DNA of 64,000 nucleotides from Treponemataceae bacterium (GTDB lineage: Bacteria; Spirochaetota; Spirochaetia; Treponematales; Rectinemataceae), in assembly GCA_963667725.2 (NCBI GenBank), contig CAXXHO010000005.1, forward strand, positions 448,001 through 512,000, in the 5' to 3' direction. The notes under the pieces were generated by a model. It did no database searches, was not told where the DNA came from, and saw nothing but the letters and a program-made list of their open reading frames with translations. Position numbers and translations under genes: made by a program. Positions 2,637-63,669 of this stretch are shown here, piece by piece (within the stretch, counting starts at the first letter, position 1; each line of letters starts with the position of its first letter).

Positions 2637-2894
2637 GAAGATATTACAAACACTATATTATTACAAATAATGGCATATTTCATTATTTTGTATATGTTTG
2701 CTTGATTCCACGGCGTTACTCTTCCTGCGCGGGAGCGTCTTTCTAACATTGGCTTAACCTTTAAATCCGTGCCCGAAGGGCTTGGCGCGGTTTGTGCATA
2801 AAGGAGCGAAGCGACTGCACAAACCGTGACAAAGGATTTATAAGGTTGAAGCACTTGTTAGGATAATTTTTTTCAATCCTTACTATACTCTTAC

Positions 2895-3269
2895 TTATCT
2901 TTCTTTCCCAAATATCTTTAATATCTCTTCTTTAGTTTCTTTAAATATTACCTGCTTAGTCTTATTACTCTCATATATAAAGTCCCTTAAGCTCTTACTC
3001 TTAATAGATGTAAAATCTCCAATAATCCCTATCTTTAATCCGTAGTTACTTGCTTTTTGCAGTATCTCGCCTGCTACTCTTGTCTTTAGTTCAAAGAAAT
3101 CTGGTATGATATTTTCTTTCTTTAATATGATAGTTCTTACTGAGTATGATCCTATGATATCTAATAGATCCTGCGTATCCTTTAAAATATAGCCATCATC
3201 TTCAAGCTCAAGTATTCTTTCATCGTTAATGGTATGTAATATAGTTTTCATAGAAATATTATCTCTCAT
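2895..3269 (-). CDS. DUF4180 family protein
   Basis: DFFELKTRVAGEILQK...SKSLRDFIYESN. Confidence 0.8.
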   Translation of the reverse strand: MRDNISMKTILHTINDERILELEDDGYILKDTQDLLDIIGSYSVRTIILKKENIIPDFFELKTRVAGEILQKASNYGLKIGIIGDFTSIKSKSLRDFIYESNKTKQVIFKETKEEILKIFGKER

Positions 3270-3543
3270 ATGCTCAATTATTTTAATAGCCTAAAAAGTA
3301 TTATAAACAGGTGATAAATATTTCAAGGATGCATTTGACGTAATACTTTTTCTATTAGCTATTATTATTCTCAACTTATTACCAGGTGTACCTGCGCGCG
3401 TTTAGCGCGTCATCCTAACATTGGCTTAACCCTTAACGCCTGCTCCTGAGCGTAGCGAAGGATTGGCGTGGTTTGTGCATTGTTGTTCTGCACAAACCAT
3501 GACAAAAGGCGTTATAGGGTTGAAGCATTTGTTAGACGAATCC

Positions 3544-4089
3544 TTATTTACTACCCTTTTCACTTATTTTATATTTAAGCAATTCATTCAATACATAAGT
3601 TTCTCTTTCAATCCATTTCGTTTTCTTTTCAGAAGACTTCATCGTTTTTCTATTAACTTCTAATGCTTCTTTAATAGTTGTCCACTTTGGAATAAACATC
3701 AATTCTTTCTCATAATCATCAAGATTTTGACTATGTAAAGAATCTTCAATTACAATTTCGTAGTAGGCTGATATCATTTTAAAATAATCAAATGTTTCTT
3801 CTTTAGATTTATTGTACTCAATTACTGTTCCAATTTTACATTTAATATCTACAATAGTTCCTCCAATTTCTTCATCTATTTCTCTAAATAATGCAATTTC
3901 TTGCGTTTCGTTATCTTCTACACCACCACCAGGAAATTTATATTCGTCATTTGTTTTTGAATAAACCAAAAGTATCTGATTATTCTTAATAATTACTGCT
4001 CTTACAGCATTTCTACAAAATGATAATCCATTTAGATCTATATCTTTTTTATAAAATATCTCTTTGTTAAAAAGCATCGATCCTTCCAT
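3544..4089 (-). CDS. NUDIX hydrolase
   Basis: FPGGGVEDNETQEIALFREIDEEIG Nudix box. Confidence 0.85.
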   Translation of the reverse strand: MEGSMLFNKEIFYKKDIDLNGLSFCRNAVRAVIIKNNQILLVYSKTNDEYKFPGGGVEDNETQEIALFREIDEEIGGTIVDIKCKIGTVIEYNKSKEETFDYFKMISAYYEIVIEDSLHSQNLDDYEKELMFIPKWTTIKEALEVNRKTMKSSEKKTKWIERETYVLNELLKYKISEKGSK

Positions 4090-4319
4090 GATAAAATGTT
4101 ACATACACAATTACACATATCAAGTTAACATTTTTACTAATTGCTTTAATATGTATCTTTTTGCGCCGAAGGCGTCCGTCTAACATTGGCTTAACCCTTA
4201 ACGCCTGCTCCTGAGCGTAGCGAAGGATTGGCGTGGTTTTTGCATTGTTGTTCTGCAAAAACCATGACAAAAGGCGTTATAGGGTTGAAGCATTTGTTAG
4301 CGGTTTTTTACTTCATATT

Positions 4320-5129
4320 CTATTGCGTTAATGTATTGTTTTTAAAAAACTCTACTATAAATGGAATTGCATCTCCTGGAATTTTATGTATATCATTATA
4401 TATAAATGTAGTTAACGGCTTATCTATTGCAGATTTATATTCTGTAACATTTTTATTTATAACTATTCCTTCATCATTACATTTATTTATTTTCTTAATA
4501 AATTCTATCATTTCTTTTTGTGATTTAAACTTTACAATTTCATCTTGCTTCCCGGCAACATGGAATACTGGTATTTCTTTAAATAGATTTCTATCTTTGT
4601 TTGATCCTAAAGTACCTGCTATCGGCGCAATCGCTGCTATAATATCTCTTCGAACGGTAGCTATTACATAACTAAAAGCGGCACCATTGGAAAACCCTGT
4701 AACGTATATTCTATTTTCATCTATTGAACACTTATTTTTTAAATATATCAGTATTTCATCAAATAGCCTGATATCTCTGTCCTTATAATCTCCAACATAT
4801 GTTTGCCATCCTGATTTAGCACCTCCTGTTTCCATTTTTTGAATTACAGTTCTTAATCCACGTGGGTAGACAACGATTGCTTCTGGCCAATACTTTTCGA
4901 TTTTAAATTTGCCTATGGCTTCAGTTAACTCTTGCCCATAACCATGAAAAACAAATACTACTGGTAATTTTTCTTGTGTTGAATTTTCTGGAACATATAA
5001 TAAGAAGTCTCTTTGAACATTATCTACAGATATCTTTATTTGCTCTAAAGAATATCCTTTAGTGAAAACCATCAATAATAAGGCAATAATATATATAGTT
5101 TTCATAAGTTTATACTTTCTTTTACTCAT
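4320..5129 (-). CDS. Secreted alpha/beta hydrolase (PHB depolymerase/esterase-like)
   Basis: Signal peptide, VFVFHG, GFSNG nucleophile elbow, D and H of the catalytic triad. Confidence 0.8.
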   Translation of the reverse strand: MSKRKYKLMKTIYIIALLLMVFTKGYSLEQIKISVDNVQRDFLLYVPENSTQEKLPVVFVFHGYGQELTEAIGKFKIEKYWPEAIVVYPRGLRTVIQKMETGGAKSGWQTYVGDYKDRDIRLFDEILIYLKNKCSIDENRIYVTGFSNGAAFSYVIATVRRDIIAAIAPIAGTLGSNKDRNLFKEIPVFHVAGKQDEIVKFKSQKEMIEFIKKINKCNDEGIVINKNVTEYKSAIDKPLTTFIYNDIHKIPGDAIPFIVEFFKNNTLTQ

Positions 5130-5317
5130 TAGATTCCTCCATTGTTTTCATATGCCTTTTAATACCGCTAACATTGGCTTAACCTTTAAAGCCTGGCCTG
5201 AGCGAAGCGAAGGATTGGCGTGGTTTGTGCATTGTTGTTCTGCACAAACCATGACAAAAGGCTTTATAAGGTTGAAGCTTTTGTTAGATTTCTTCTTTTC
5301 TTTAACTTACTATTTCT

Positions 5318-5842
5318 TTATAGTATCATTTCATATGCTATAAAGTCTGTCCCATATACATGTATTCTACCTAGATTTCTATATCCCATTCTCTTATAAA
5401 GTCTGTTTGCTGCTTTGTTTACTTCTGCTGCAAGATGATGTGTTGCCTTAAAACCTCTTTCCTTTGCAGTGTCACTTATATAGTGCATCATCTTTTCTCC
5501 TATACCTATGCTTTGGTATGAAGGAGTAACACATAATCGTACAAGAAAGCATGATTTTACTTTTGCCCAATCTAATAATTGTAATTCTGATGATTCTTCA
5601 TCTACCATAGAAATTGCAGCTATAATCTTATTATCATCTTCAAGTACATATAGGCTTTTATTCTTAAGATCATCTTTAAGTATTTCTCTATTTGGATAGT
5701 CTTCATCCCAATCTGAAGTACCATCAATTTTTCCTTTAGCTTTTACTGCATCATAAAGAGAATGTATTTGATCTTCTTCTATTTCTAATGCCATTCTAAA
5801 TTGTTGCATATGTTTTTCCCACGTAGCCCATGTATTATTCAA
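5318..5842 (-). CDS. GNAT N-acetyltransferase
   Basis: RLCVTPSYQSIGIG, NKAANRLYKRMGY. Confidence 0.8.
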   Translation of the reverse strand: MNNTWATWEKHMQQFRMALEIEEDQIHSLYDAVKAKGKIDGTSDWDEDYPNREILKDDLKNKSLYVLEDDNKIIAAISMVDEESSELQLLDWAKVKSCFLVRLCVTPSYQSIGIGEKMMHYISDTAKERGFKATHHLAAEVNKAANRLYKRMGYRNLGRIHVYGTDFIAYEMIL

Positions 5843-5927
5843 TTCTTTATTATTATTGCCCAGAGCATCAATCTAACATTATTAACAATGGCTTCAGCAT
5901 GTCTACTTTTGCGCCGAAGGCGTCAAT

Positions 5928-6022
5928 CTAACATTTGGATAACCTGTGAGGCGTGATTGGCGCGGTTCATGCGAAAGCATGTAACCGTGACAATAGCCGA
6001 ATCAGGTTGATCCAGTTGTTAG
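5928..6022 (-). repeat. attC: Atypical short attC (~95 bp); other divergent attC at ~7738, 8481, 15286, 22524, 47913
   Basis: CTAAC-N5-GATAACCTG...CAGGTTGATC-N5-GTTAG keeps the box geometry with a different interior. Confidence 0.85.
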
Positions 6023-6969
6023 ATGAAATTTCTTTGTAATCGTTGGATTGTGTTCTCGATCTTGTTCAATACATCAAAATAAATAACAGGCAACTCGTAA
6101 TTAATCTTTAATCCTTTAGAATAAAATCGCTTTCTATTTTTCACGGTATCAATATTCCCATCTGTATAATCAATCAAGTAAACATACTTCTCATGAAGTT
6201 CCTTATTTCTATAGTTGAAATATATTTTATTTTGATATTCAAAAGAACCATTATGAATAATTTCATGTCTGTAATTAATAATCATATTTATTGACTCTGT
6301 TTTCTCATATATAGTTCCATTCCATGATAAATCAAAGAATTTGTTTTTATCACCATATAATATTTCTTTACTAGCTAGTTTGGGCCATTTTGAATAATCA
6401 GTGTATTCATGATTACTTTCAATAACCAATTTTGTCATCAAATCAAATATTGAGTATAATTTTACAATCATATTTTCAAACATGGAATAAATAACTATCG
6501 TCTTTCTACCTGACATCCAATAAATTACATTTTCTCCTTCGTCATCAATAACATGATCTTGGTTGATATTACATAATTCTTTATAAAAAGTCACAAACAG
6601 CTCTTTTGTTTCTATTAATCTATTTTGAATAGAGGCAATAATAAAGAAAATATCATGTAGTAATAATACACGATGATTTTTTGTATCACTAATTTCGGTT
6701 ACCAAATGCGCGAATTCATCTTTTGATATAGTAAAATCTGAATCAATACCACAATTTGAAAGCCACATAGGTCTAATATCAATATTTTCATAATAATCAA
6801 TATCATTAAATATCTTGTTCTGAAATGAATCATAAAGGCTTACAAGGTTTGCATCTAATTCATAGAATATTTGGTCTCCATCAAAAATGACTTCTCCAGA
6901 TATTTCATTAATATAGAATTTAGAAATGGGTATATCACTTATCAATCCATTTGCATTAAGAATACTCAT
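6019..6969 (-). CDS. Hypothetical protein with HEPN-like RxxxxH motif
   Basis: Long ORF filling the cassette; YRHEIIHNG. Confidence 0.55.
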   Translation of the reverse strand: MSILNANGLISDIPISKFYINEISGEVIFDGDQIFYELDANLVSLYDSFQNKIFNDIDYYENIDIRPMWLSNCGIDSDFTISKDEFAHLVTEISDTKNHRVLLLHDIFFIIASIQNRLIETKELFVTFYKELCNINQDHVIDDEGENVIYWMSGRKTIVIYSMFENMIVKLYSIFDLMTKLVIESNHEYTDYSKWPKLASKEILYGDKNKFFDLSWNGTIYEKTESINMIINYRHEIIHNGSFEYQNKIYFNYRNKELHEKYVYLIDYTDGNIDTVKNRKRFYSKGLKINYELPVIYFDVLNKIENTIQRLQRNFI

Positions 6970-6995
6970 TTAGTCTCCGCGCCGAAGGCGTCCAT

Positions 6996-7141
6996 CTAAC
7001 ATTTTCGCTTAACCTTTAAGCCCGACCTGAGCATAGCGAAGGTTTGGCGCGATTCTTGCACCACTTTACGTTGCCGCTCCTACTTTACAGAATCTCGCAA
7101 GAAGCGTGCCAAAGGGCTTATAAGGTTGAAGCGGATGTTAG
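6996..7141 (-). repeat. attC: attC site, long ~145 bp variant (also at ~16033, 17582, 22158, 23757, 30483, 31751, 32664, 35409, 36130, 39045, 39409)
   Basis: Same R/L boxes, arms TTTAAGCCC...GGGCTTATAA, large central loop CACTTTAC..GCCGCTCCTACTTTAC. Confidence 0.93.
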
Positions 7142-7152
7142 AAATCTTCTTC

Positions 7153-7608
7153 TTACTTGAGATTAAGGAGCACTATTCCTGATAGACAAAATGCTATCCC
7201 TATTAGCTTCTTTATACTTATCTTTTCCTTAAATACTATTATTCCTATGATCACTAATCCTACTGTTATCATTGATGATACAAGAGCTGAAGAAAACGTA
7301 AGCTTTCCCCCTGCCCTATACAACAACAAATATCCTAGTTCTATTCCTACGATTGGAACTGCAAGTAAAACACTATAAATGTTTAGGCTCTTTATTGATT
7401 CAGAGAGTGTGTTCTTCAATGGAAAAACAACAAAGAGAACACCTACTAAGCATAATGAAGTAAGATAAGAACAAAGAATACTAAGTGCTGGATTCGCATT
7501 CGGAGCAATAGACTTTTGAAAGAACTGATAGGCAACACCGGAACACACTAATAAGGCAATAGAAGCAATATACATTCCTTTTCCTTTTTCAATACGATGT
7601 AAAGACAC
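7153..7608 (-). CDS. EamA/DMT-family small membrane transporter
   Basis: Five hydrophobic segments; C-terminal FKEKISIKKLIGIAFCLSGIVLL. Confidence 0.8.
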   Translation of the reverse strand: MSLHRIEKGKGMYIASIALLVCSGVAYQFFQKSIAPNANPALSILCSYLTSLCLVGVLFVVFPLKNTLSESIKSLNIYSVLLAVPIVGIELGYLLLYRAGGKLTFSSALVSSMITVGLVIIGIIVFKEKISIKKLIGIAFCLSGIVLLNLK

Positions 7609-7855
7609 TCTTAAAATTCAAAGAGCCTTTTACGTAGTACAGTCTATTAAAATTGAAAACAAAAAAGCATCAAAATGGAATTGTTGTAGTACATTTTAAT
7701 CATATTTTTCTTTCTTATCCGCGCGCGCAGCGTCTTTCTAACATTGGCTTAACCCTTAACGCGTACATTGGCGCGGTTTGTGCTTGCGAGCGAAGCGAGT
7801 TGCACAAACCGTGACAATAGCGTTATAGGGTTGAAGCAGGTGTTAGATTTCTTCT

Positions 7856-8353
7856 TTAATTAACTATCTTATCTATATATAGTTTACAATCTGGTACAAA
7901 CTTATTTCCCTTTAAAAGTTCTAGTACTTCTTCTCGTGTTGCTATTTTTGCTTCTTCAACTTCAGTTTCTTGACACTTTATTGCCATTTTATCTATTTCT
8001 TGATTAAAGACCCATACATCTACAAAATGCGGACTAAAGCCATTATCACCTTTATATTGATATACGATCTTTCCTCTTTCTTTATCCAAATCAATTCCTA
8101 ATTCTTCTTTTACTTCTTTCAAAGCAGTTTTTAAGCTATCATCCCCTGATACAGCTGAACCACCTGTACATTCCCATAACCCAGGATAAGGATATTTATC
8201 TTTCTTTCTTTTTGAAATAACAAATTCATTCTTTGAATTCTTTATCCATACATGTACGATGAGATGATATTCATTATCGTTGAATGCTTCACCACGAAGA
8301 ATAACTTTTCCAGTTCTATTTCTATTTGAATCTAATACATCCCAATATTCCAT
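7856..8353 (-). CDS. NUDIX hydrolase (IDI-like)
   Basis: GGSAVSGDDSLKTALKEVKEELG. Confidence 0.85.
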   Translation of the reverse strand: MEYWDVLDSNRNRTGKVILRGEAFNDNEYHLIVHVWIKNSKNEFVISKRKKDKYPYPGLWECTGGSAVSGDDSLKTALKEVKEELGIDLDKERGKIVYQYKGDNGFSPHFVDVWVFNQEIDKMAIKCQETEVEEAKIATREEVLELLKGNKFVPDCKLYIDKIVN

Positions 8354-8614
8354 AATACTTCCTTACTTTAAATTAAAAACTCTAAAAACTTTTAGTCTTG
8401 ATATCATCATATGAATAACCAAATTAGCATTGGCAATAAAAAGTTTAACGTATATCTTTATCCGCCCGCGCAGCGTGAATCTAACATTGGCTTAAGCTGG
8501 GAGCTTCGACCGCGAAGCGGTTGGCGCGCTTTTTGCATGAGAGAGCGTAGCGATCTGCAAAAAGCGTGACAAAGAAGCGACTCAGCTTGAAGCAGTTGTT
8601 AGGCGAATATTCTT

Positions 8615-9106
8615 CTATATGTCTTTCTCCATATAAACTATTCCTAAATCTTTACCAAATTTTCCCCAACATTTCTTTAATCTTCCATATTCACTAAATC
8701 CATTTCTCTCATGAAACGTTAAGCTGTTTTTATTATCATCAGTTATATCAACTATTATTTTGCTAATTCCAATATTTTTTGCATCATCTTCCAATTGCTG
8801 TAATGCTCTTTTCCCTATGCCTTTCCCAATATATTCTTTTTTAATAAAATACATTACTTCTGCGGTTTTCTTAAATGGTCTTATATTCTTAAAAGCTTCT
8901 AATGTACAAAAACCAATCAATTCTTTTCCATTAAGCGTAATTGCATATCCTGAATAAACATCATTCTTATCTATGATTTTATCAAAATGATTATAATCTA
9001 CAATGTCCTCACGAAAAGCCGCTGTTGTTGTTTTAATATAATAATTCAATATATCAATCACGCTTTGCCGATGTTTCTCTTCTAATGGTTCAAATACAAT
9101 ATCCAT
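8615..9106 (-). CDS. GNAT N-acetyltransferase (phosphinothricin acetyltransferase-like)
   Basis: ILNYYIKTTTAAF, YIGKGIG, SLTFHERNGF. Confidence 0.8.
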   Translation of the reverse strand: MDIVFEPLEEKHRQSVIDILNYYIKTTTAAFREDIVDYNHFDKIIDKNDVYSGYAITLNGKELIGFCTLEAFKNIRPFKKTAEVMYFIKKEYIGKGIGKRALQQLEDDAKNIGISKIIVDITDDNKNSLTFHERNGFSEYGRLKKCWGKFGKDLGIVYMEKDI

Positions 9107-9342
9107 AAGAACATCCTTTTTTTATACTGCTTCTTTATCCACAAAGCCCGTCAGGTTAACATTTTTAGCTATAACTTCAACATGTATCATTTTGCGCCGA
9201 AGGCGTCCGCCTAACATCGGGCTTAACCCTTAACGCCTGCTCCTGAGCGAAGCGAAGGATTGGCGTGGTTTTTGCATTGTTGTTCTGCAAAAACCATGAC
9301 AAAAGGCGTTATAGGGTTGAAGCATGTGTTAGATTTCTTCTA

Positions 9343-9882
9343 TTATTCAATTTTATCAATAATACTATTATACCTGTTAAGTATTTTACCTTTGAAGTTT
9401 TCGTCTGAAAGCCTTAACTTCATTGTCTCTTCACCTTTCCCTTTCATTTCTTCTGGTGTTATAAGTTTTATTGAAATTGCCTCTGCAAATTCTAGCTTCC
9501 CAGCCATTAATATTTTAATTTTTTCAAATATCTTAGTATATCCATACTTTGTATCTTTATCGTCTTCACCACTTCCACAACAAGTTATAAAATATAGCTT
9601 GTTTATATCATCTTTATACTTTTTAAGAAAATCACTTAATGGAGATATTAATTGTCCCATCCAAACAGGTCCACATAGTATAACTGCATCATAATTTTTT
9701 ATGTTTTTATCAGTCTTATGAATTCCAAAGCTTATTTTTAATAATGATGATATCATTAGTCCAAATGATGATTTTATTCTTGGTGATATTTCAATTAAAT
9801 CATATTTTTTATCATTAGCTATTTTCTCTGCCAAATATTTGTTATTTCCAGTGTTTGAATAATATACAACAAGATTATTCAT
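9343..9882 (-). CDS. Flavodoxin-like protein
   Basis: VVYYSNTGNN FMN-binding loop, YDAVILCGPVWMG. Confidence 0.8.
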   Translation of the reverse strand: MNNLVVYYSNTGNNKYLAEKIANDKKYDLIEISPRIKSSFGLMISSLLKISFGIHKTDKNIKNYDAVILCGPVWMGQLISPLSDFLKKYKDDINKLYFITCCGSGEDDKDTKYGYTKIFEKIKILMAGKLEFAEAISIKLITPEEMKGKGEETMKLRLSDENFKGKILNRYNSIIDKIE

Positions 9883-10148
9883 CGATTCCTCCTCATTGAA
9901 TCTGCATTTTAAGTTTACCTAACTAGTGTTGAATTATAATATTAATTGCATTTCTATGTGCTTGATGGATCGAGCTAACATTTACACAATAATGTTTAGG
10001 ATGTATCTTTTTGCGCCGAAGGCGTCAATCTAACATTGGCTTAACCCTTAACGCCTGTTCCTGAGCTGGCGTTGTACAGTGCGCGGTATAGAAAATCTTG
10101 CTAATACTCTATAAATAATAGAGTTATACGATTGCAGTCGAAAATCTT

Positions 10149-55590: not shown

Positions 55591-55836
55591 ATATTCTCCA
55601 TATACTCAGGTATGTTAATTACATTTATGCTGAATAGTTCATCTCACTTTCAGGTTAACATAACTGATATTCGATTCAACATGTCTACTTTCGCGCCGAA
55701 GGCGTCCATCTAACATTGGCTTAACCCTTAACGCCTGTTCCTGAGCGTAGCGAAGGATTGGCGTGGTTTTTGCGTCATCTTCTCGCAAAAACCATGACAA
55801 AAGGCGTTATAGGGTTGAAGCATGTGTTAGGTGTCT

Positions 55837-56472: not shown

Positions 56473-56592
56473 ACATTTCCTGCGCGATAGCGTCCACCTA
56501 ACATTGGCTTAACCTTTAAATCCGCGCCTGAGCGAAGCGAAGGCTTGGCATGGTTTGTGCATTGTTGTTCTGCACAAACCATGCCAAAGGAT

Positions 56593-57147
56593 TTATAAGG
56601 TTGAAGCAGTTGTTAGGTTTATTTCTTTACAATATTTTTCAATTATGCTTACAAATTTTTTAATATCACTATTATTTCTATAACATAATAATGTATAAGA
56701 TTTTATCTTAGAATTCTCATTATCATTAATAAACTTATTAATTTCATTTTCGATATATTTTAATTGTCTCTCTTTTGATGATCTTTCTTCATTTGTCTTG
56801 CTAACATCAATTAGTTGAAAATAGCCAATTTTTTCAGAATAATTATATTCCTCGACATATCTTATATAAATACTAGAAAAGTATGATGTATAAAATTTAC
56901 CAAATATTTTTGTTGGACTTATACCAGATTCTTCTACCTCGATAATTGCATTTATTTTATTATCGTTTACAATTGCAGCATCTATTTTACACATTATATT
57001 TTCTCTATTTTTTTTATTTATAAATAAAGAAATATGTTGATCACCACCACATGCTGGATCTAGTAGTACTTTATAAGGAAACAAAAAAACTTCTTCTAAT
57101 TGTTCGCCAACTTTAGAATGTAATTGATGTTTTTCATTATTACTCAT
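56593..57147 (-). CDS. Hypothetical protein, possible PD-(D/E)XK-like nuclease
   Basis: KIDAAIV...AIIEVEES motif spacing. Confidence 0.45.
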   Translation of the reverse strand: MSNNEKHQLHSKVGEQLEEVFLFPYKVLLDPACGGDQHISLFINKKNRENIMCKIDAAIVNDNKINAIIEVEESGISPTKIFGKFYTSYFSSIYIRYVEEYNYSEKIGYFQLIDVSKTNEERSSKERQLKYIENEINKFINDNENSKIKSYTLLCYRNNSDIKKFVSIIEKYCKEINLTTASTL

Positions 57148-57162
57148 TTTAATTTACAGCTA

Positions 57163-57384
57163 TTAATTCTCTAGCCATGGTAATTCATCATCAGGTCCAT
57201 AAATATAATCATTTAGTATATAAAATTGACCATTACATTTTGGACCATAAATATAATTATTTACTATATAATATAAACCACTATTTTTAGGTCCATATAT
57301 ATAATTAGATTTAATATAGAATTGTCCTGACATTTTTGGCCCATAAATGTATCCATTCTTAATGTAATACTGTCCTGAACTCAT
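57163..57384 (-). CDS. Small protein made of four 16-aa repeats
   Basis: (S/N)GQ(Y/F)YIxxxYIYGP repeated 4 times. Confidence 0.7.
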   Translation of the reverse strand: MSSGQYYIKNGYIYGPKMSGQFYIKSNYIYGPKNSGLYYIVNNYIYGPKCNGQFYILNDYIYGPDDELPWLEN

Positions 57385-57560
57385 TTAATACCCCTTATTT
57401 TTTTGTGCCATATTATTTATTAATTTTGGCGCGAAGCGTCAACCTAACATTGGCTTAACCCTTAACGCCTGTTCCTGAGCGTAGCGAAGGATTGGCGTGG
57501 TTTTTGCGTCATCTTCTCGCAAAAACCATGACAAAAGGCGTTATAGGGTTGAAGCGTTTG

Positions 57561-58421
57561 TTAGATTTCGTATTCTAACATGTCATATGCTATTTTAATA
57601 TTTTTACCTGTAATCTCAGAACAATATATACTCAATCTCTCGCCCATTTCAAAATTAACACCATCTGGTTCTTCAACATGGCCTAGTATGAATTGCTTAC
57701 TATTTAATGTTCTTATATACTCAAGAGTCTCTAATATTGTTTGTTCATCTTCTAGTACTGGATGATTTTGGTCAATGTTCCGCTCTTTAGTTATCGGGTT
57801 AACATCAACAACACCTAGCGGCAAATATATCAGATCATAAATAGTGTCATATATCTCTCGCTTAGGAATCCAAAACTTAAGTTCGTCCATTATGACCAAT
57901 ATTCTCTTTCCAAAACCAGCAATGTCATAGCCAAATGAATAATCCTGACCTAACTGAACAGGTGTTACTCTATAGCCATCAAATTCATAGCTTTTAGAAT
58001 TTGGAATTACTTCTAACTTTATTAAGCCTGTGTATGCTAAAAAATCAAGATGACTTTTTATACCCAAACATTTAGAAAATGTTTCAGCTATCTTCTCAGT
58101 TAAGACAACATTAGTAATTTTATTTTTTGCTGGATAATTTTTCCAATCTTTATTCATCTCAAATATTCTCTTCCCAGAAGTATGATCAGGATGCCAATGA
58201 GAATAAAAACATACGGCTATATGGCTCACCTTTGATCGGTTCAGTTGAATAAATATTTCTTCAGGCGTATCAATTAGAATATCAGGACCATGAATAAACA
58301 CGCTAGGCCCGAAGCGTGAGTTCTTTGGATCTCCTAATCGAGCTTCGGTGCATGATTTGCATGTACAAAAAGGTTTTGGTGTGGTTACAGCGCCACCAGA
58401 TCCCAGGACTTCAAGTCTCAT
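57561..58421 (-). CDS. Metallo-beta-lactamase-fold hydrolase (PhnP-like)
   Basis: LGSGGA..P.PFCTCKSC, ILIDTP, SHWHPDH. Confidence 0.85.
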   Translation of the reverse strand: MRLEVLGSGGAVTTPKPFCTCKSCTEARLGDPKNSRFGPSVFIHGPDILIDTPEEIFIQLNRSKVSHIAVCFYSHWHPDHTSGKRIFEMNKDWKNYPAKNKITNVVLTEKIAETFSKCLGIKSHLDFLAYTGLIKLEVIPNSKSYEFDGYRVTPVQLGQDYSFGYDIAGFGKRILVIMDELKFWIPKREIYDTIYDLIYLPLGVVDVNPITKERNIDQNHPVLEDEQTILETLEYIRTLNSKQFILGHVEEPDGVNFEMGERLSIYCSEITGKNIKIAYDMLEYEI

Positions 58422-58573
58422 ATGTTCCTCAGTAATTCCGTAAATCTAACATTGGCTTGACCCTTAACACCTGCTCCTGAGCGAAGCGAAGGATTGGCGT
58501 GGTTTGTGCATTGTTGTTCTGCACAAACCATGACAAAAGGCGTTATAGGGTCGAAGCATTTGTTAGGCGAAAA

Positions 58574-59149
58574 TTAGTACAACATTCCTTTGTAATTATT
58601 CTTTATGGCTTCAATAATTTTTTCTTTTCTTTTTCTTCGTGTCTCTTCAGTTTTTGCATCACAATAAAATCCCGCTAGTTGCTTCTGCCTAGAAGGTGTA
58701 GTGTTCTCAAATATTTTCAATGTATCATTTTCCATGCTCAACACATCTTTTAGCTTTTTAATATTGGCAGCGTGTATACTATTCTTATCTAAAACCTCAT
58801 TTTTCTTATCATCAGTTTGATATGCTTCTATTCCAGATTCTGTAATTAATCCTTTATCTTTAAGTCCTTTATAGATTGCTTTATTCTTTTCAGACCACTT
58901 CTTTTTATCAATCCTTCTTGAGAAGTACTTTTTATACTTTGTTTCATCTATTGACTTCATTAGCCCATCAATCCAACCAAAACAAATTGCCTCTTCCAAA
59001 GCATCATTTGAAGTAAAATCTTTGCTTCTTTTTGAAAAAACAATCCAAATGCCACTTAAAGAACTATGGTTGATTTCAAGCCATATTCTAAAAGCTTTTC
59101 TATTTTCAAATTGAATAATTGAACTAGTACTATTCATCATAATTATCAC
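58574..59149 (-). CDS. YdeI/OmpD-associated family protein
   Basis: FRIWLEINH, ALEEAICFGWIDG, WSEKNK, AKTEETRRKR. Confidence 0.85.
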   Translation of the reverse strand: MIIMMNSTSSIIQFENRKAFRIWLEINHSSLSGIWIVFSKRSKDFTSNDALEEAICFGWIDGLMKSIDETKYKKYFSRRIDKKKWSEKNKAIYKGLKDKGLITESGIEAYQTDDKKNEVLDKNSIHAANIKKLKDVLSMENDTLKIFENTTPSRQKQLAGFYCDAKTEETRRKRKEKIIEAIKNNYKGMLY

Positions 59150-59286
59150 CTAACTTGAATATATTTAATTAGCGCGCGAAGCGCGTCCGCCTAACATTGG
59201 CTTAACCTTTAAATCCGCGCCTGAGCTACTGCGAAGGCTTGGCGTGGTTTGTGCATGGGATTTCTGCACAAACCATGACAAAGGAT

Positions 59287-59847
59287 TTATAAGGTTGAAG
59301 CGGTTGTTGGATGCTTCTTCTTCTCTTCTTTACTCTTCTCTATTATGTCTTCAAAGAACCATTTGTATTCATTCTCTTTTACTTCAACATACTTCTCTCT
59401 ATTATTTTCACCATATCTTCTTATAATGTCATTTTTTATACTATTGTATTGATCTACTGCTTCTTTATGATTTCGTAAGTAATCCCTAAATAAAATATGC
59501 TTTCGAAACTCTAAATTATCTGAAGCACAGACATATAAATGATGTTGTATTGTATCTAAAGCTCCCAATTTATTTATTCTGTCTCTTTTAAATGCTTCTC
59601 TCCCTGGTATACCCTGGTCCCCACAATAGACGTATCCAATATTCTCTAGTTCAGTTTTTATCTGTAATAAATCATCCTTTTTATTTATCTCTATATCTAT
59701 ATCAATAATTGGCTTTGCAAACATTCCTTTTATTGATGTACTACCGACATGCTCAATTCTGACATATGACTTTAGGCTTTTTTTTAATACTTCTTTTATT
59801 ATTTCAAATTGTTTTGGCCATTTAACATTATACTCTTCAATGAGCAT
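59287..59847 (-). CDS. GrpB (UPF0157) family protein
   Basis: IEHVGSTSIKGMFAKPIIDI, HHLYV, FRDYLR. Confidence 0.88.
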   Translation of the reverse strand: MLIEEYNVKWPKQFEIIKEVLKKSLKSYVRIEHVGSTSIKGMFAKPIIDIDIEINKKDDLLQIKTELENIGYVYCGDQGIPGREAFKRDRINKLGALDTIQHHLYVCASDNLEFRKHILFRDYLRNHKEAVDQYNSIKNDIIRRYGENNREKYVEVKENEYKWFFEDIIEKSKEEKKKHPTTASTL

Positions 59848-60012
59848 CTATCACCTTCTCTATGATTTTGGCGCCGAAGGCGTCCATCCAACATTGGCTT
59901 AACCCTTAACGCCTGCTCCTGAGCGAAGCGAAGGATTGGCGTGGTTTTTGCGTGATCTTCTCGCAAAAACCATGACAAATGGCGTTATAGGGTTGAAGCT
60001 TTTGTTAGCTAT

Positions 60013-60387
60013 TTATTCTTTCTCAAAATATTTTACTGATTTCAAATCTTTAAAATGCTTATCTTGTGTCCATAAGGTTGCATTATATTTTTTATTTATT
60101 GCATAGATGATACTATCAGCCATTGCTAGTTTATTCTCTTTACCAATCTTTGCTGCATAGATTGCCAAGTCAGTATCAAGATTTACCACATTACCCTGTT
60201 TCATATGAGCAATTGCGAATATTGCTTTATCTTCATCTAATTCAATTATCAATTTCTTGAATACTTCATAGATAGTAATTGAAGGAACAAGGAGATGTTC
60301 AATATCCTCAATTATTGATGATACTTTTTCTCCTACATGACTTCCTTTGAAGTATTCAAGCCAACATGATGAATCTACAATATTCAT
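60013..60387 (-). CDS. vapC: VapC PIN-domain toxin
   Basis: IVDSSCWLEY, LAMADSIIYA, LWTQDKHF. Confidence 0.9.
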   Translation of the reverse strand: MNIVDSSCWLEYFKGSHVGEKVSSIIEDIEHLLVPSITIYEVFKKLIIELDEDKAIFAIAHMKQGNVVNLDTDLAIYAAKIGKENKLAMADSIIYAINKKYNATLWTQDKHFKDLKSVKYFEKE

Positions 60388-60590
60388 ATTCTATCTTCTT
60401 CTCTTTGAATATCTGTATTGATCCCTTTAAAAGCTCCTTTCAGTTTCTTCATTGGTACAATTGGAACAAGTTCAATTCTTGATCCATAGGTAATGACTTC
60501 AAGCTTGGCTCCAACATTCAATCCAATGGTTTCTCTTATTTCTTTTGGTATAACTACTTGGAACTTACTTGATATGGTTACTGTTTTCAT
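60384..60590 (-). CDS. AbrB/MazE-like antitoxin
   Basis: TVTISSKFQVVIPKEIRE. Confidence 0.88.
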   Translation of the reverse strand: MKTVTISSKFQVVIPKEIRETIGLNVGAKLEVITYGSRIELVPIVPMKKLKGAFKGINTDIQREEDRI

Positions 60591-60608
60591 CGATAGCCTC
60601 CTCGTCTT

Positions 60609-60637
60609 ACTATACCACTATCGATAAGAATTGTCAA
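60609..60637 (-). promoter_or_regulatory. Promoter of AbrB-VapC cassette
   Basis: TTGACA-N17-TATAGT with extended TG; palindrome TATCGATA in the spacer, repeated at the start codon. Confidence 0.72.
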
Positions 60638-60800
60638 ATCTTCTTATTTTGGGGCGCCGAAGGCGTCCAGCTAACATTAGCTTAACCCTTAACGCCTGCT
60701 CCTGAGCGAAGCGAAGGATTGGCGTGGTTTTTGCGTGATCTTTTAGCAAAAACCATGACAAAAGGCGTTATAGGGTTGAAGCATTTGTTAGAAATCTTTT

Positions 60801-61178
60801 TTATGGCTCGAATCTTTTGCACTCAATATTTGGAATATATTTATAGTGTTTGTCATTCGCTGTTAAGAGTGTTTCACTCGTTTGAACAACAGTTGCAGCT
60901 ATTAGTGCATCTGCTAACATCATCGAATGACTAAGTGAATATTCTTGTATATAGAATATTGCTCTTGATGAAATTTCTTTATCTATTTGTATGATATCAA
61001 TATTCCATTTTTGTATCTGCTTTTGAAAAATCCTAAACTCTTCTTTATTCTTCATCCCTTGGATAAGTTCCATATAGGTTACAGCTGATACTGAAAATGG
61101 AATATTTGCTTCAACTACTTTCTTAGCCTTCTCGTTTCCACGGAGGTACCATATTAGGACATCAGTATCAATAATCAA
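60801..61178 (-). CDS. vapC: VapC PIN-domain toxin
   Basis: MIIDTDVLIWYLRG, LADALIAAT, LLTANDKHY. Confidence 0.9.
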   Translation of the reverse strand: MIIDTDVLIWYLRGNEKAKKVVEANIPFSVSAVTYMELIQGMKNKEEFRIFQKQIQKWNIDIIQIDKEISSRAIFYIQEYSLSHSMMLADALIAATVVQTSETLLTANDKHYKYIPNIECKRFEP

Positions 61179-61417
61179 AATGAACGTCCTTTTCGAAGTT
61201 CGCGAACCGATTCTTCGACAGTCTTTTCATCTTTCCTTTTGTTCCACATACCAAAGAATCCATTATCTTCTTGCATGGAAACACTATCTTTCTTATGAAT
61301 AGGAACTATTTTTGCTAGCGCTTTCCCTCTAAAAGTAACAGTAACTTCTTGTCCATTAACAACTTGATCTATTATTTTACCAGGCTGAATTCTTAGTTCT
61401 TTCGTCGTTATCTTCAT
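61175..61417 (-). CDS. Phd/YefM-family antitoxin (start reassigned to MKITTKELR)
   Basis: ITTKELR...GQEVTVTFRGKALAKIVP; GGAGGA RBS. Confidence 0.85.
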   Translation of the reverse strand: MKITTKELRIQPGKIIDQVVNGQEVTVTFRGKALAKIVPIHKKDSVSMQEDNGFFGMWNKRKDEKTVEESVRELRKGRSF

Positions 61418-61427
61418 GGTTTCCTCC

Positions 61428-61470
61428 AGTATACACTTCATAGTATACACTACAAAACACCACTAATCAA
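61428..61470 (-). promoter_or_regulatory. Promoter/operator of Phd-VapC cassette
   Basis: TTGATT-N17-TATACT; AGTATACACT repeated at 61428 and 61442. Confidence 0.65.
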
Positions 61471-61621
61471 GTCTTTTAATATTCTTCCTGCGCGGGAGCG
61501 TCTTTCTAACATTGGCTTAACCCTTAACGCTTGTTCCTGAGCGAAGCGAAGGATTGGCGTGGTTTTTGCGTCATCCTCGAGCAAAAACCATGACAAAAGG
61601 CGTTATAGGGTTGAAGCATGT

Positions 61622-62196
61622 GTTAGCTATCTTCTCTTAACTCTATTTAGATATGTTTTATTACTATAATCGTCATGATTATATTTTTTCTTTTGGCTCT
61701 TTATATCGCCAAACATAATAAAAGACTGTTCGGTAGCCGTAACATACTCGATCAGCCAAACTCGGTTATTATGTTATATTGATATAACTTTGAAAGCAAG
61801 AATATTATGATATTCTTACGTGGCACAAAATTATAAAGCTTTTAAATCTTTTAATATCTATTTATACTATATGTTTTTATCCTTCTTCATATACAATAGT
61901 TTTATTTCTCAAAACTCTTCATTATTGTTTTTATAGATCTAGTGATTCAAAGAATTGAAGCTCATCTGAATCGGTTTTCAATAAGCTTTAAAATATTATA
62001 GATTTCATATATTCGCAACACAATAAAAAAGCCTGCGAACTCCTTATGGAATACACAGGCCTAATACTACTTGGAATGTTAAAAAATATATTAACGATTA
62101 CAAATGCTATTGATTTGTACTACTATGATTGACCATTGCCGTATAACTTTTTACTAAGGATTTAATATTCTTCCTGCGCGGGAGCGTCTAGCTAAC
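61622..62196. other. ORF-less cassette (~575 bp)
   Basis: GTTAGCTA/TAGCTAAC complementary ends; no ORF of 60 aa or more in the track. Confidence 0.75.
62022..62060 (-). terminator. Intrinsic-terminator-like hairpin
   Basis: Minus strand GCCTGTGTATTCC-ATAA-GGAGTTCGCAGGC-TTTTTTATT; two mismatches become G-U pairs only on this strand. Confidence 0.6.
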
Positions 62197-62324
62197 ATTG
62201 GCTTAACCCTTAACGCCTGTTCCTGAGCGTAGCGAAGGATTGGCGTGGTTTGTGCATTGTTGTTCTGCACAAACCATGACAAAAGGCGTTATAGGGTTGA
62301 AGCAGTTGTTAGATTTCTTCATCT

Positions 62325-62822
62325 TTATATCTTTTTTTTCCCTATATTATTCATTATTAATATAATTTCATTTTTTTCATATGAATTTAGATTAATATCA
62401 AATGCTCCTTTTTCTTTATGTATTATCCGTAATCCATTTTCCAATTCTTGGTATTTCTCTATTCTACTCCATTCCGCAGAATAATTAAGAAAAACTACAC
62501 CATTTGAATAAAATCCACTATTCTTTGATTCAATATAGATTCTTAAAGGGTCAATAAAAACTAAACTTCCAAAAATTATTATTCCTAATTTTTCAAAAAG
62601 TGTTTGTTGTAGAAAAGCAGAACAAAATATAATTATGCTAATAATACTTGGATATATTATTTGAGAATAACTTGAATCAACTCTTAATATAATTTTACTT
62701 CTTTTTACAACATTAATTATTTTTAGGCTTTTTATAGACGTAATAGAACCACTAAAAAATATTGATATAATAATAATTGCAGTTACAATTTTTGCAATAT
62801 TAATTAGCATATTTTTTCCCAT
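62325..62822 (-). CDS. Hypothetical membrane protein
   Basis: Three hydrophobic segments, then GFYSNGV...WSRIEKY (bacterial PH-like tail). Confidence 0.6.
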   Translation of the reverse strand: MGKNMLINIAKIVTAIIIISIFFSGSITSIKSLKIINVVKRSKIILRVDSSYSQIIYPSIISIIIFCSAFLQQTLFEKLGIIIFGSLVFIDPLRIYIESKNSGFYSNGVVFLNYSAEWSRIEKYQELENGLRIIHKEKGAFDINLNSYEKNEIILIMNNIGKKKI

Positions 62823-63111
62823 ATATTTTCTATCCCTGCGCGATTCGTCACTCTAACATTGGCATTAATAGGTTTAGTATGTATCTTTTTGCGCCAGAGG
62901 CGTCAATCTAACATTGGCTTAACCCTTAACGCCTGCTCCTGAGCGAAGCGAAGGATTGGCGTGGTTTTTGCATTGTTGTTCTGCAAAAAACATGACAAAA
63001 GGCGTTATAGGGTTGAAGCATTTGTTAGAAACCTTCCCCTTGTGTCTCTCAAGGTTTTTTATTATTGTCTTCAATAAATCTCTTATTATTTATGTTCTTA
63101 GTTTCTTATCT

Positions 63112-63462
63112 TTATTCAATAATATCTTCTTTATTCTCATATTCAATATAGTCTTCTCTTCTCGGGCTAAAGACTTCTATAGCTACTGAATCTTCAAGTA
63201 TTTCTGCCTTATGTTTAACATTTGATAAAATTGTCCAACTATCACCAGGATGTAATACTTTAGATTTTCCATCTATAAAGAGCCTAATGCTGCCTTTTAC
63301 GAGATATCCAGTTTGTTCATTTATATGCTTATGTTCAGGAAGTGCAGCATCTTTATTAAGTAAGAATTCAACAAGTAATGAATTTTCTCCATAGCTAAGA
63401 GTCTTAATGCTTATACCAGGGATGATTTCTTTGTATCCATTTCTCGATGCAATGCCGAACAT
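63112..63462 (-). CDS. Cupin domain protein; paralog of 42326..42676
   Basis: Near-identical 116 aa protein. Confidence 0.88.
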   Translation of the reverse strand: MFGIASRNGYKEIIPGISIKTLSYGENSLLVEFLLNKDAALPEHKHINEQTGYLVKGSIRLFIDGKSKVLHPGDSWTILSNVKHKAEILEDSVAIEVFSPRREDYIEYENKEDIIE

Positions 63463-63669
63463 ATGCTTTTCTCCATCATGTTGATTAATAATTACTGCAA
63501 TGAAATATAAATATTCTTCCTGCGCGGGAGCGTCTTTCTAACATTGGCTTAACCTTTAAAGCCTGGCCCGAGCGGCGTTGCGTAGCAACGATGCGAGGGA
63601 TTGGCGTGGTTTTTGCGTGATCTTCTCGCAAAAACCATGACAAAAGGCTTTATAAGGTTGAAGCAGTTG

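Follow-up and report, generated by a model that had tools for sequence, protein, structure and literature searches.

A bulged-T duplex predicted to extend the R arm of attC sites in a spirochaete integron array

Strand-specific small DNA hairpins that are read by protein are known from the bulged subterminal hairpins of IS200/IS605 ends and from the promoters of the N4 virion RNA polymerase, and GNA mini-hairpins are stable in DNA. For attC sites, extension of the R arm beyond 7 bp is known from older integron reviews.

In the VchIntIA structure, T12'' is held in a pocket of the non-attacking monomer (PMC3053210). In cis, a bound T disorganises the active site according to structure-based work (PMC2727003), and the L-arm T, when so bound, is said to pull the catalytic tyrosine away (PMC2727003, PMC3053210). 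G..A caps are already known on attC bottom strands (PMC2727003, PMC5027507). We found no description in the literature of the R-arm element outlined here, which came to light in a window of 64,000 nucleotides, the whole stretch of DNA analysed, from a spirochaete array with 159 kept sites. Such arrays are very large, at 100-200 cassettes. As the initial annotation had it, the + strand of the window serves both as attC bottom strand and, for the cassette genes, as template.

Hairpins at cassette 5' ends

A hairpin was called where a stem of at least 3 G-C pairs had the end of its 3' arm precisely 2 nt ahead of the core's variable triplet. Of 74 attC left ends that the caller recognised in the window, 53 had such a hairpin. 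It is also present at two sites that escaped the caller, one an atypical attC (~5925), the other an attC split by an IS (~10027). The resulting 55 of 76 cassette 5' ends (Table 1) matches the initial annotation's figure of ~55 of 76 cassettes, and its nine listed hairpins and AGA exception were all recovered in place. Across this genome (G000) and related spirochaete arrays, one set of which was picked by a pattern that itself contained the hairpin, 265 of 362 distinct 5' ends have a hairpin at the fixed offset, against 0 of 418 at the mirror position on the other end of attC. Other offsets yielded 2 (offset 0), 9 (offset 1) or at most 6 (offsets 6-15), and unseeded metagenome cassettes replicate the pattern (hairpins 60/83; loops G..A 56, T..C 0). 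The hairpin at 5' ends is real and far above chance, and the idea of a conserved, strand-specific single-stranded-DNA structure extending the site beyond R' stands.

The loops are strongly strand-biased, as anticipated (G..A 232, T..C 0 in the spirochaete arrays). The proposed G..A rule holds in the window, where 54 of 55 loops obey it and one is AGA, but in other genomes about one-eighth of loops depart from it, these on longer stems. Three-pair stems have a G..A loop in 85 of 86 cases, stems of at least 6 bp in only 4 of 16. Triloops make up 128 of 163 G..A loops, every G..A loop is closed by C-G, and tetraloops show no preference for GNRA (GNRA 15, GNYA 17); these statistics fit the loop rules of DNA, not RNA. 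The same G..A caps occur inside attC, on 306 of 435 bottom strands versus 14 top strands. Three types of hairpin match, letter for letter, the apical tips of short attC sites, an aadA site among them. The G..A loop looks like a cap that stabilises short stems in single-stranded DNA, rather than a signal.

One predicted duplex, two sources

The hairpin had been described as having a GTC foot. This foot is not unpaired: its G is the last base of the stem, its T is bulged, and its third letter forms a pair with the base that precedes the stem on the 5' side. This closing pair covaries (G..TC 236, C..TG 16, T..TA 1, G..TG 0, C..TC 1). Counted per distinct stem-loop type, the figures are 69:0:1:12 (Fisher p 2e-13), with the C..TG class comprising 12 stem-loop types from 7 genomes and with p values, here and below, overstated by the shared ancestry of cassettes. 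Unseeded metagenome cassettes gave G..TC 48 and C..TG 5.

Cassettes that lack the hairpin encode the bulged-T duplex between their 5' end and their own 3' end. Pairing at three positions, in the best of five registers tried, is found in 49, 48 and 44 of 52 (18, 25 and 26 by shuffle, p<=0.0005), but only in 17, 21 and 28 when the neighbouring attC is used instead. It occurs in 1 of 183 in the hairpin class, and metagenome cassettes pair in 12, 12 and 12 of 16. The bulged base is T in 180 of 183 hairpin and 48 of 52 flank cases. Hairpin and flank forms are mutually exclusive; 237 of 246 cassette families have one or the other and 9 have neither. About a quarter of cassettes carry the bulged duplex without any hairpin. 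Their number includes the cassette with CATCC-GTA-GGATG (32648), previously offered as a hairpin example, which sits in a different register. The conserved feature, as a predicted fold, is the bulged-T duplex and not the loop, to which the signal had been assigned. A single closing pair beyond the bulge is energetically marginal: in ViennaRNA minimum-energy folds of eight reconstituted circles the hairpin formed, and neither the closing pair nor a flank extension across the bulge did.

A hairpin-free version of the duplex removes the basis for roles specific to the hairpin, namely protection of single-stranded circles, priming of the second strand and an N4-type promoter, all raised by the initial annotation. 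Strict bottom-strand G..A loops with C-G closure would suit such roles, which nevertheless appear very unlikely: they predict neither the fixed register nor the closing pair, loops are free on long stems, and the same caps recur within attC bottom strands. Least probable of the readings considered is a transcription or RNA element, with GAC falling within a -35 box or a top-strand hairpin stabilising cassette mRNA. TTGACG or TTGACC does occur at the hairpin site in 34 of 183 families, and some oral Treponema cassettes have promoter activity (PMC6557892). However, the first bases of that hexamer are fixed by R'' pairing, and no -10 element follows the hairpin (TANNNT at spacers 16, 17 and 18 in 6, 3 and 5 of 183, not above the 2-12 at other spacers). 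At the RNA level, top-strand loops would be U..C, there is no GNRA bias on the other strand, and the flank form, foldable only in the excised circle, could not form in a linear array transcript.

Table 1. Coordinates of the array, its integrase gene and the R-arm elements; bulged bases in square brackets, pairs counted with the cassette's own 3' flank
Position	Strand	Feature	Detail
1..64000	-	Middle of ~140-kb integron cassette array	genes on - strand
G000:C5:550880-551806	-	intI	outside window; co-oriented with cassettes
3415..3535	+	Example attC, own attC of cassette with hairpin at 4163	L-arm extrahelical T 3515, G 3522, six pairs apart
4163..4184	+	Example R arm, hairpin type: G-CGCC-GAA-GGCG-[T4175]-C, triplet, CTAA/C (slash, cut)	8 nt T to cut
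43706..43719	+	Example R arm, flank type: CTG[T43710]A, triplet, CTAAC	pairs in circle with 42876-42879
42868..42879	+	R'' and 3' flank (TCAG, 42876-42879) of same flank-type cassette	
2727..2739	+	Hairpin G-CGC-GGGA-GCG-[T]C	
3394..3411	+	Hairpin G-CGCGC-GTTTA-GCGCG-[T]C	
5911..5924	+	Hairpin G-CGCC-GAA-GGCG-[T]C	adjoins atypical attC
6979..6992	+	Hairpin CGCC-GAA	
7723..7734	+	Hairpin G-CGC-GCA-GCG-[T]C	
8466..8477	+	Hairpin C-CGC-GCA-GCG-[T]G	compensatory C:G closing pair
9194..9207	+	Hairpin CGCC-GAA	
10013..10026	+	Hairpin CGCC-GAA	adjoins IS-split attC
13650..13663	+	Hairpin CGCC-GAA	
14406..14422	+	Hairpin CGCGC-GTAA	
15269..15282	+	Hairpin CGCC-GAA	
16016..16029	+	Hairpin CGCC-GAA	
16746..16762	+	Hairpin CGCGC-GTAA	
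17562..17578	+	Hairpin CGCGC-GTAA	
18467..18483	+	Hairpin CGCGC-GCTA	
19359..19371	+	Hairpin CGC-GATA	
20246..20259	+	Hairpin CGCC-GAA	
21484..21495	+	Hairpin CGC-GAA	
22139..22154	+	Hairpin CGCGC-GAA	
23742..23753	+	Hairpin CCC-GAA	
24478..24489	+	Hairpin CGC-GAA	
25468..25481	+	Hairpin CGCC-GAA	
26486..26499	+	Hairpin CGCC-GAA	
27426..27437	+	Hairpin CCC-GAA	
29768..29781	+	Hairpin CGCC-GAA	
30466..30479	+	Hairpin CGCC-GAA	
31734..31747	+	Hairpin CGCC-GAA	
34724..34737	+	Hairpin CGCC-GAA	
35394..35405	+	Hairpin CCC-GAA	
36113..36126	+	Hairpin CGCC-GAA	
37440..37451	+	Hairpin CCC-GAA	
38243..38255	+	Hairpin CGC-GATA	
39030..39041	+	Hairpin CGC-GTA	
40496..40509	+	Hairpin CGCC-GAA	
41167..41178	+	Hairpin CGC-GAA	
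42094..42107	+	Hairpin CGCC-GAA	
42736..42748	+	Hairpin CGC-GGGA	
44522..44534	+	Hairpin CGC-GATA	
47200..47216	+	Hairpin CGCGC-GCTA	
47896..47909	+	Hairpin CGCC-GAA	
48968..48981	+	Hairpin CGCC-GAA	
51796..51807	+	Hairpin CGC-GAA	
52604..52615	+	Hairpin CCC-GAA	
54813..54826	+	Hairpin CGCC-GAA	
55693..55706	+	Hairpin CGCC-GAA	
56482..56494	+	Hairpin CGC-GATA	
57429..57440	+	Hairpin CGC-GAA	
59172..59187	+	Hairpin CGCGC-GAA	
59871..59884	+	Hairpin CGCC-GAA	
60654..60667	+	Hairpin CGCC-GAA	
61490..61502	+	Hairpin CGC-GGGA	
62176..62188	+	Hairpin CGC-GGGA	
62891..62904	+	Hairpin CGCC, exceptional AGA loop	bulged T and closing pair intact
63522..63534	+	Hairpin CGC-GGGA	
718..721	+	Flank-type 5' end	bulged base at end-1; 2/3 pairs
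1863..1866	+	Flank-type 5' end	2/3 pairs
5161..5164	+	Flank-type 5' end	3/3 pairs
12967..12970	+	Flank-type 5' end	3/3 pairs, by eye versus flank after IS-split attC
22517..22520	+	Flank-type 5' end, ORF-less 223-bp cassette	3/3 pairs
30843, 33026, 36493, 39405, 39771	+	Same flank-type 5' end, ORF-less 223-bp cassette	3/3 pairs each
32657..32660	+	Flank-type 5' end GA[T]G	3/3 pairs; overlapped by CATCC-GTA-GGATG in another register
33670..33673	+	Flank-type 5' end	3/3 pairs
45494..45497	+	Flank-type 5' end	3/3 pairs
46365..46368	+	Flank-type 5' end	3/3 pairs
48204..48207	+	Flank-type 5' end	3/3 pairs
49666..49669	+	Flank-type 5' end, bulged C	2/3 pairs
50322..50325	+	Flank-type 5' end	3/3 pairs
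51018..51021	+	Flank-type 5' end	3/3 pairs
53843..53846	+	Flank-type 5' end	3/3 pairs
58439..58442	+	Flank-type 5' end	3/3 pairs

A predicted grip for the integrase

The R-arm T is placed 8 paired bases 5' of the cut, where it mirrors, by two-fold symmetry, the extrahelical T already known on the L arm; the L arm itself reads T-N6-G in 373 of 435 distinct attC. On our best reading of these sequences, the element would lengthen the R arm that the attC bottom strand forms on folding, and the integrase would read it. We think it probable, with moderate confidence, that the mini-hairpin is one of two R-arm extensions whose extrahelical T is gripped by the R-box integrase monomer, promoting recombination. 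A short duplex with one extrahelical T would lengthen the R arm, the hairpin stacking end-on against the 8-bp core stem, and the R-bound monomer would take up the T in the pocket occupied by T12'' in the non-attacking VchIntIA monomer; the G..A loop would only stabilise short stems in single-stranded DNA. We infer the positive sign because only the excised circle, which is what integrates, allows the flank form. The hairpin form would persist within the array next to any cassette and so would act in excision too. The R-arm T is likely, on this prediction, an extra integrase grip on the recombination site. Among the integrases, the His matching VchIntIA H241 is invariant (17/17), and the residues matching P232 and H240 vary, being S and Y in this array's integrase.

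The effect could carry the opposite sign: if a T held in cis disturbs the active site, as structure-based work has it (PMC2727003), a brake and not a boost is to be expected. The R-arm T would then dock in cis on the attacking monomer and damp cleavage, and a permanent hairpin brake would stabilise arrays against excision. The behaviour of the catalytic tyrosine with the L-arm T in cis, the exact mirror register and the great size of the arrays all accord with a brake. We nonetheless consider it unlikely: the circle-only flank form would hinder needed integration, but 49 of 52 families retain it and the commonest multi-copy ORF-less cassettes carry it.

Alternatively, the bulged duplex might be read outside the integrase core, by the N-terminal HARP-like domain or a host factor, or be a footprint of cassette-making machinery. 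Most integrases beside hairpin arrays do have such a domain (8 of the 16 members aligned match Pfam HARP; further matches to PDB 4o66 and to UvsW, MotA and XPB folds, Z 5-6). Hairpin presence also follows the cassette's own attC type (p 0.03), not its neighbour's (p 0.84), and, in cassettes with unrelated genes, particular hairpin types go with particular core triplets and 3' flanks, a link that a genesis footprint would likewise lead one to expect and that counts against our best reading. Even so, we rate a reader other than the core as improbable. HARP is not necessary, as hairpins stand at 19 of 24 ends in G365, whose integrase has another N-terminus, and at 3 of 3 in G347, whose integrase lacks a HARP match (E 0.21); nor is it sufficient, as Nitrospira-group arrays with HARP integrases have no such hairpin. 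Homologous cassettes differ in which G..A loop they have, and both forms occur within some families; this suggests that selection continues. The mirror register speaks for the integrase core. A mark of cassette genesis is possible as a secondary aspect of the hairpin.

Outside the spirochaetes, 76 cassettes extend the R arm without a bulge in 30 cases and with a T bulge in 4, and have the bulged-T hairpin in 0. Pairing in the unbulged register is found in 54, 42 and 43 of 76 against 24, 32 and 19 expected. By these counts, an extended R duplex looks general and the bulge typical of the lineage.

Comparison with known systems

One close counterpart is the attC L-arm T (T12'' or T23-T24 of VCR and attCaadA; PMC2727003, PMC3053210, PMC5027507; PDB 2a3v). 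Both are single T bulges on the strand to be cut or pseudo-cut, 8 paired bases away, with a stem and GAA cap beyond the T that in three hairpin types is identical to short attC tips. They differ in that the R-arm T lies outside the 7-bp R box, taken as the site boundary in those papers, that the R arm has no mirror of the extrahelical G, and that a snap-back or the opposite end of the cassette supplies its partner strand. Within the attC variable terminal structure, GAA caps (PMC2727003, PMC5027507) are likewise bottom-strand G..A loops favouring folding of that strand, whereas the R-arm hairpin is separate, outside attC, and part of the next cassette in the array. Ordinary cassettes with an unbulged R-arm extension also gain some three pairs over the 8-bp core once circular, but have neither the bulge nor a hairpin as an alternative.

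CGTC-tagged REP repeats (PMC3733652), reported in Spirochaetes, are also GC-rich palindromes adjoining CGTC. A REP reading found no support: in REPs the terminal tag is unpaired, the stems measure 8-9 bp and the copies are scattered. In the R-arm element the CG takes part in pairing, several forms of the motif occur (GGTC, TGTC, CATC, CGTG), most stems measure 3-5 bp and the copies always accompany attC cores.

Compared with IS200/IS605 ends and N4 promoters, the element described here is located at a tyrosine-recombinase site, and a duplex that is not a hairpin can take its place.

Array, integrase and a hairpin in fixed register

The window is the middle part of a cassette array of about 140 kb, in a genome of 4.2 Mb and 56% GC that carries three integron integrases above the TIGR02249 cut-off. 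The integrase at the array head scores 447 bits (cut-off 265), aligns with the Vibrio integrase VchIntIA (PDB 2a3v) over residues 104-408 and finds its closest matches among entries titled Spirochaetaceae, Spirochaetota, Treponema or Treponematales. Its gene and the cassettes are co-oriented, a "reverse" layout known from Treponema denticola (PMC4909258). Cassette genes occupy the - strand and the + strand corresponds to the bottom strand of attC; in other integrons the bottom strand, once folded, is known to recombine at A|C (PMC2727003). The locus shows the marks of an integron: complementary cores, a T-N6-G L arm and a neighbouring IntI with the integron-specific insertion. The core halves R'' and R', with their conserved AAC/GTT, match at 8/8 positions in 206 of the 236 sites in this genome that have a preceding site. 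Cargo is typical (GNATs, NUDIX proteins, toxin-antitoxin pairs and unknowns; 66 of 111 listed window ORFs scanned). In all arrays the first 9 nt past R'' on the bottom strand are T-rich (T 0.44-0.78), and this run after the attC stem could serve as a terminator of antisense transcription.

The initial annotation described a hairpin at about 55 of 76 cassette 5' ends, and the figure is borne out: 53 of 74 called window sites and two irregular sites give 55 of 76. The sample was widened with arrays of relatives, retrieved by two patterns, one comprising the foot (the bases between hairpin and core triplet) without a hairpin and the other including the hairpin; genomes from the latter are selected, since that pattern included the hairpin, though none of them had more than 12 sites matching it. 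A pattern meant to find attC across the class proved insufficiently specific (it matched 181 of 201 genomes) and was excluded from the counts. From 502 candidate attC sites, 475 passed an end-complementarity filter and yielded 362 distinct 5' ends; in 265 of these, a hairpin with at least three G-C pairs stops 2 nt short of the core triplet. Hairpins at other offsets number 2 (offset 0) and 9 (offset 1), and the mirror position at the other attC end has none in 418. The genome under study, which is unselected, by itself has the hairpin on 125 of 176 ends. Three families belonging to the same order as the window have the element, and their attC sites measure about 60 to 148 nt.

Strand bias, as first proposed, persists in the larger sample: loops beginning with G and ending with A number 232, and T..C loops 0, among 265 hairpins; by distinct stem-loop type the counts are 49 and 0 of 80, and by cassette family 163 of 183 have a G..A loop, all C-closed, with T..C again at 0. 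Unseeded neighbour cassettes in metagenomes replicate this, with hairpins in 60 of 83 and loops of 56 G..A to 0 T..C, and where a metagenome hairpin pattern left everything after AAC unspecified, a detectable attC came next in 103 of 129 matches, most of these belonging to the same family of attC. The viral collection yielded one match. Within arrays, 145 of 146 TC-foot matches lie in core register.

Several familiar elements were compared with the hairpin. A sigma-70 promoter appears improbable from the sequence, with a -10 box 16-18 nt past the -35-like hexamer in 6, 3 and 5 of 183 against a background of 2-12. An intrinsic terminator is rejected: on the bottom strand the T run is found on the 5' side of the hairpin, and on the top strand an A run comes after it. 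CGTC-REP elements are defined by a terminal CGTC tag outside the pairing (PMC3733652); here the CG belongs to the stem, the final C is paired and the motif is variable, 163 of 183 stems have 3-5 bp and none exceeds 7, compared with 8-9 bp in REP, and outside arrays the motif stays at control level (59 TC-foot matches versus 48-112 for control feet). The N4 virion RNA polymerase promoter combines a template-strand hairpin with a cognate phage polymerase.

Features with coordinates (window positions unless a contig is named; C1, C3, C5 and C7 belong to the genome under study)
Feature	Position	Remarks
Toxin-antitoxin cassettes	2013-2601, 13800-14346, 17739-18396, 60801-61450	HigB, ParE, PIN, Phd, CopG families; others also present
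AAC(3)-family acetyltransferase in cassette	30964-31719	
NACHT protein in cassette	27667-29538	
Papain-like protease in cassette	22734-23696	
DDE transposase element	~10065-11990; ORF 10149-11804 (-)	Inserted mid-attC, splitting that attC
ORF-less cassette, ~223 bp, six copies	22300, 30625, 32806, 36273, 39187, 39551	Each beside the long 143-nt attC type
Second ORF-less family, 160-190 bp	Starts at 48051	Many recurrences outside the window
Leader regions, ~68 nt each	4119, 5867, 9150, 9969, 15225, 15972, 40452, 47850, 55649, 62847	Also elsewhere in this genome and in genome G050
L 3' strand, T to pseudo-cut	3515 to 3524|3525	Example; 8 paired bases
R 5' strand, new T to A|C cut	4175 to 4183|4184	8 bases
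Hairpins with tandem G-A mismatches replacing two stem pairs (C-GA-GC-GAA-GC-GA-G)	C5 ~516700, ~522950; locus L176	Motif also inside attC loops; foldable on bottom strand only
Single attC sites and small cassette clusters distant from integron integrases	C3 ~353000-360000, 520000, 604000, 1636000-1654000, 2196000	Hairpins decayed at several
Integrases with HARP-like N-terminal domain	C5:550880-551806, C1:34408-35331, C7:37069-37989	All three of this genome
Integrase of locus L159 (related genome G365)	G365:C1:1926820-1927779	Other N-terminal extension; divergent to array; cassettes with same R-arm element

Two predicted constructions around a bulged T

The GTC foot reported at first is present, but it resolves into a bulged T plus a covarying closing pair. 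Covariation links the final foot base to the base just 5' of the stem (G..TC 236, C..TG 16, T..TA 1); the counter-combinations stand at G..TG 0 and C..TC 1, and there are 11 others. Because these bases covary, the fold reads as a closing pair, one bulged T and a stem, directly abutting the 8-bp core stem. A G-T wobble could account for the G..TC class, but not for the C..TG class. Since cassettes share ancestry, the closing pair was also counted by stem-loop type (69:0:1:12, p 2e-13) and by family (163:0:1:12; 246 families with unrelated interiors, from 356 complete cassettes), and metagenome cassettes gave G..TC 48, C..TG 5, G..AC 4, G..CC 2 and A..CC 1. A stem that continues instead into the core triplet is rejected at 69, 72 and 25 pairs of 265 versus 58, 83 and 26 expected. 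The T lies unpaired within a duplex that covaries, and its distance to the cut is fixed, as expected of an extrahelical base.

Mini-hairpin loops of the G..A kind can be specially stable in DNA. Here they cap 85 of the 86 stems that have three pairs, against only 4 of the 16 that reach 6 bp or more; triloops predominate, and tetraloops divide into 15 GNRA and 17 GNYA. Similar caps within attC occur on 306 of 435 bottom strands versus 14 top strands, and bottom-strand GAA caps have been described (PMC2727003, PMC5027507). ViennaRNA DNA energies barely separate the strands (-2.53 versus -2.45 kcal/mol), in a model apparently lacking a GNA bonus. On the best reading, the loop acts as a cap letting a short stem fold on the recombining strand.

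What the initial annotation took for a conserved, strand-specific single-stranded feature is real, but it is wider than a hairpin and has a hairpin-less form too. Cassettes of this second form keep the T, and in the circle their 5' ends would pair with their own 3' flank. Among five registers tested, pairing is best with the T skipped, at 49, 48 and 44 of 52 families for three positions, compared with 18, 25 and 26 of 52 for shuffled partners (p<=0.0005); all three pairs form in 41 of 52 families with the bulge and in 0 of 52 without it. Against the neighbouring attC, the same ends pair in only 17, 21 and 28 of 52. Eleven GC-rich or decayed ends, scored separately, gave 6, 8 and 6 of 11. Only 1 of 183 hairpin cassettes shows flank pairing, and one form or the other is found in 237 of 246 families. 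Of the 21 window ends that lack a hairpin, every one shows the first two pairs and 18 show all three; in metagenomes flank pairing reaches 12, 12 and 12 of 16, versus 2, 19 and 2 of 71 in the hairpin class. Homologous cassettes may differ in form, with loops there varying among G..A types, and neither array position nor cassette length separates the two forms. Folding energy models predict neither the closing pair nor the bulged flank extension, so either may form only when stacked or bound. All told, the predicted folded structure is very probably real.

The canonical place for extrahelical bases is the L arm, where the T-N6-G rule (PMC3053210) holds in 373 of 435 distinct attC sites; this T instead takes the mirror position within the R arm. 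Counted from the respective cut sites, the R-arm T and L-arm T are two-fold equivalent. Three hairpin types, the commonest included, are letter-for-letter the apical tips of short attC sites (two Nitrospira-group sites and one aadA plasmid site). Given equivalent positions and matching tips, the R arm copies the distal L arm minus the G, and that extrahelical G reportedly sets strand choice (PMC2727003). A direct product of L-box strand exchange is rejected, as that would put 9 nt between T and cut and fix the sequence there, and 8 nt are observed, with a triplet matching the cassette's own R''. A copy of the array's own attC tip is rejected too, the tips differing among the 40 short attC listed.

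Among cassettes with unrelated genes, hairpin type goes together with the attC, the triplet and the 3' flank of its own cassette, a pattern in the sequences that suggests cassette ends are inherited as units; this bears on genesis and leaves the compensatory changes unexplained. An additional leader of 55-57 nt is present in ten window cassettes whose genes are unrelated. Behind a common A-run and TACAT/GACAT motif, these cassettes contain a second core, which is decayed and has a TC foot of its own and in some cases a decayed hairpin. The leader matches none of the attI sites of the genome under study; it may be a promoter module or the remnant of a fused site.

Proposed integrase engagement and the attC model

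How might the T be read? We propose that the integrase monomer bound at R would read the T-bulged, extended R arm. The structure of VchIntIA has the L-arm T lodged in cis, contacting P232, H240 and H241 in the monomer that does not attack (PMC3053210); in the integrases here the H241-equivalent histidine is invariant, and the equivalents of P232 and H240 vary. A positive effect on recombination is favoured, since outside a circle the flank form cannot fold and the circle must integrate. Such a positive grip by integrase seems fairly probable. The T could alternatively act as a brake, a real rival since the cis-bound L-arm T is said to disorganise the active site (PMC2727003). A further step may be entertained, though we advance it tentatively: in spirochaete cassettes attC would be a near-symmetric site with three extrahelical bases, in which the attacking monomer also docks an extrahelical T, each cassette would carry a built-in setting, and the site boundary in current models and detection tools would be too short. 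Flank-paired ends would then complete the site only in the excised circle and snap-back ends in any array context, so that cassette 5' ends would tune excision versus integration independently of attC sequence.

The array integrase bears an N-terminal HARP-like domain, and related integrases with 3-4 HARP-like repeats exist. HARP domains bind junctions. Junction binding is not documented in the accessible text of PMC9368896. A homologue search with residues 1-72 of one integrase gave 2 matches. Though an attractive candidate for recognising the junction, the domain is neither necessary, two related genomes (G347, G365) having hairpin-bearing arrays without it, nor sufficient, Nitrospira-group arrays having the domain without hairpins.

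In the literature searched (subscription papers and supplements lay outside its coverage) we found no description of an R-arm bulge or cassette 5'-end hairpin, nor does either appear in the accessible text of PMC3607928, PMC3733652, PMC2727003, PMC2095811, PMC12901181, PMC3053210, PMC5027507, PMC9368896, PMC6557892 or PMC4909258. The predicted attC variant, whose R-arm extrahelical T is specified by one or other of two mutually exclusive forms, appears to be new. A mirror-placed T makes two questions accessible to oligonucleotide tests, namely how integrase chooses its attacking monomers and in what way cassette mobility depends on the neighbour. It also constrains cassette genesis, because the mechanism must either yield ends that pair over 11 bp around a bulge or supply a hairpin, and it may limit cassette exchange between spirochaete integrons, oral Treponema included, and other bacteria.

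The variant stands apart from 76 control cassettes, taken at 23 loci outside the spirochaetes (plasmids of class 1 and 2, Chloroflexota, the Nitrospira group, Gemmatimonadota, Proteobacteria and others, with probably a few false calls among them). Controls also extend the R arm, but unbulged, with 54, 42 and 43 pairs of 76 versus 24, 32 and 19 expected; three pairs form in 30 of 76 unbulged and 6 of 76 bulged (4 with T), and a chance hairpin, lacking the T, occurs in 2 of 76. Ordinary cassettes, class 1 included, thus pair about three bases past the 8-bp core in the circle, an extent for which we found no quantification in the accessible text of the integron literature checked.

Three unpaired features make up the accepted view of attC, and the R arm past the 7-bp box has none of them. 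Hundreds of natural cassettes appear to specify a fourth, by two independent constructions, and it mirrors the very base thought to switch off the non-attacking monomer.
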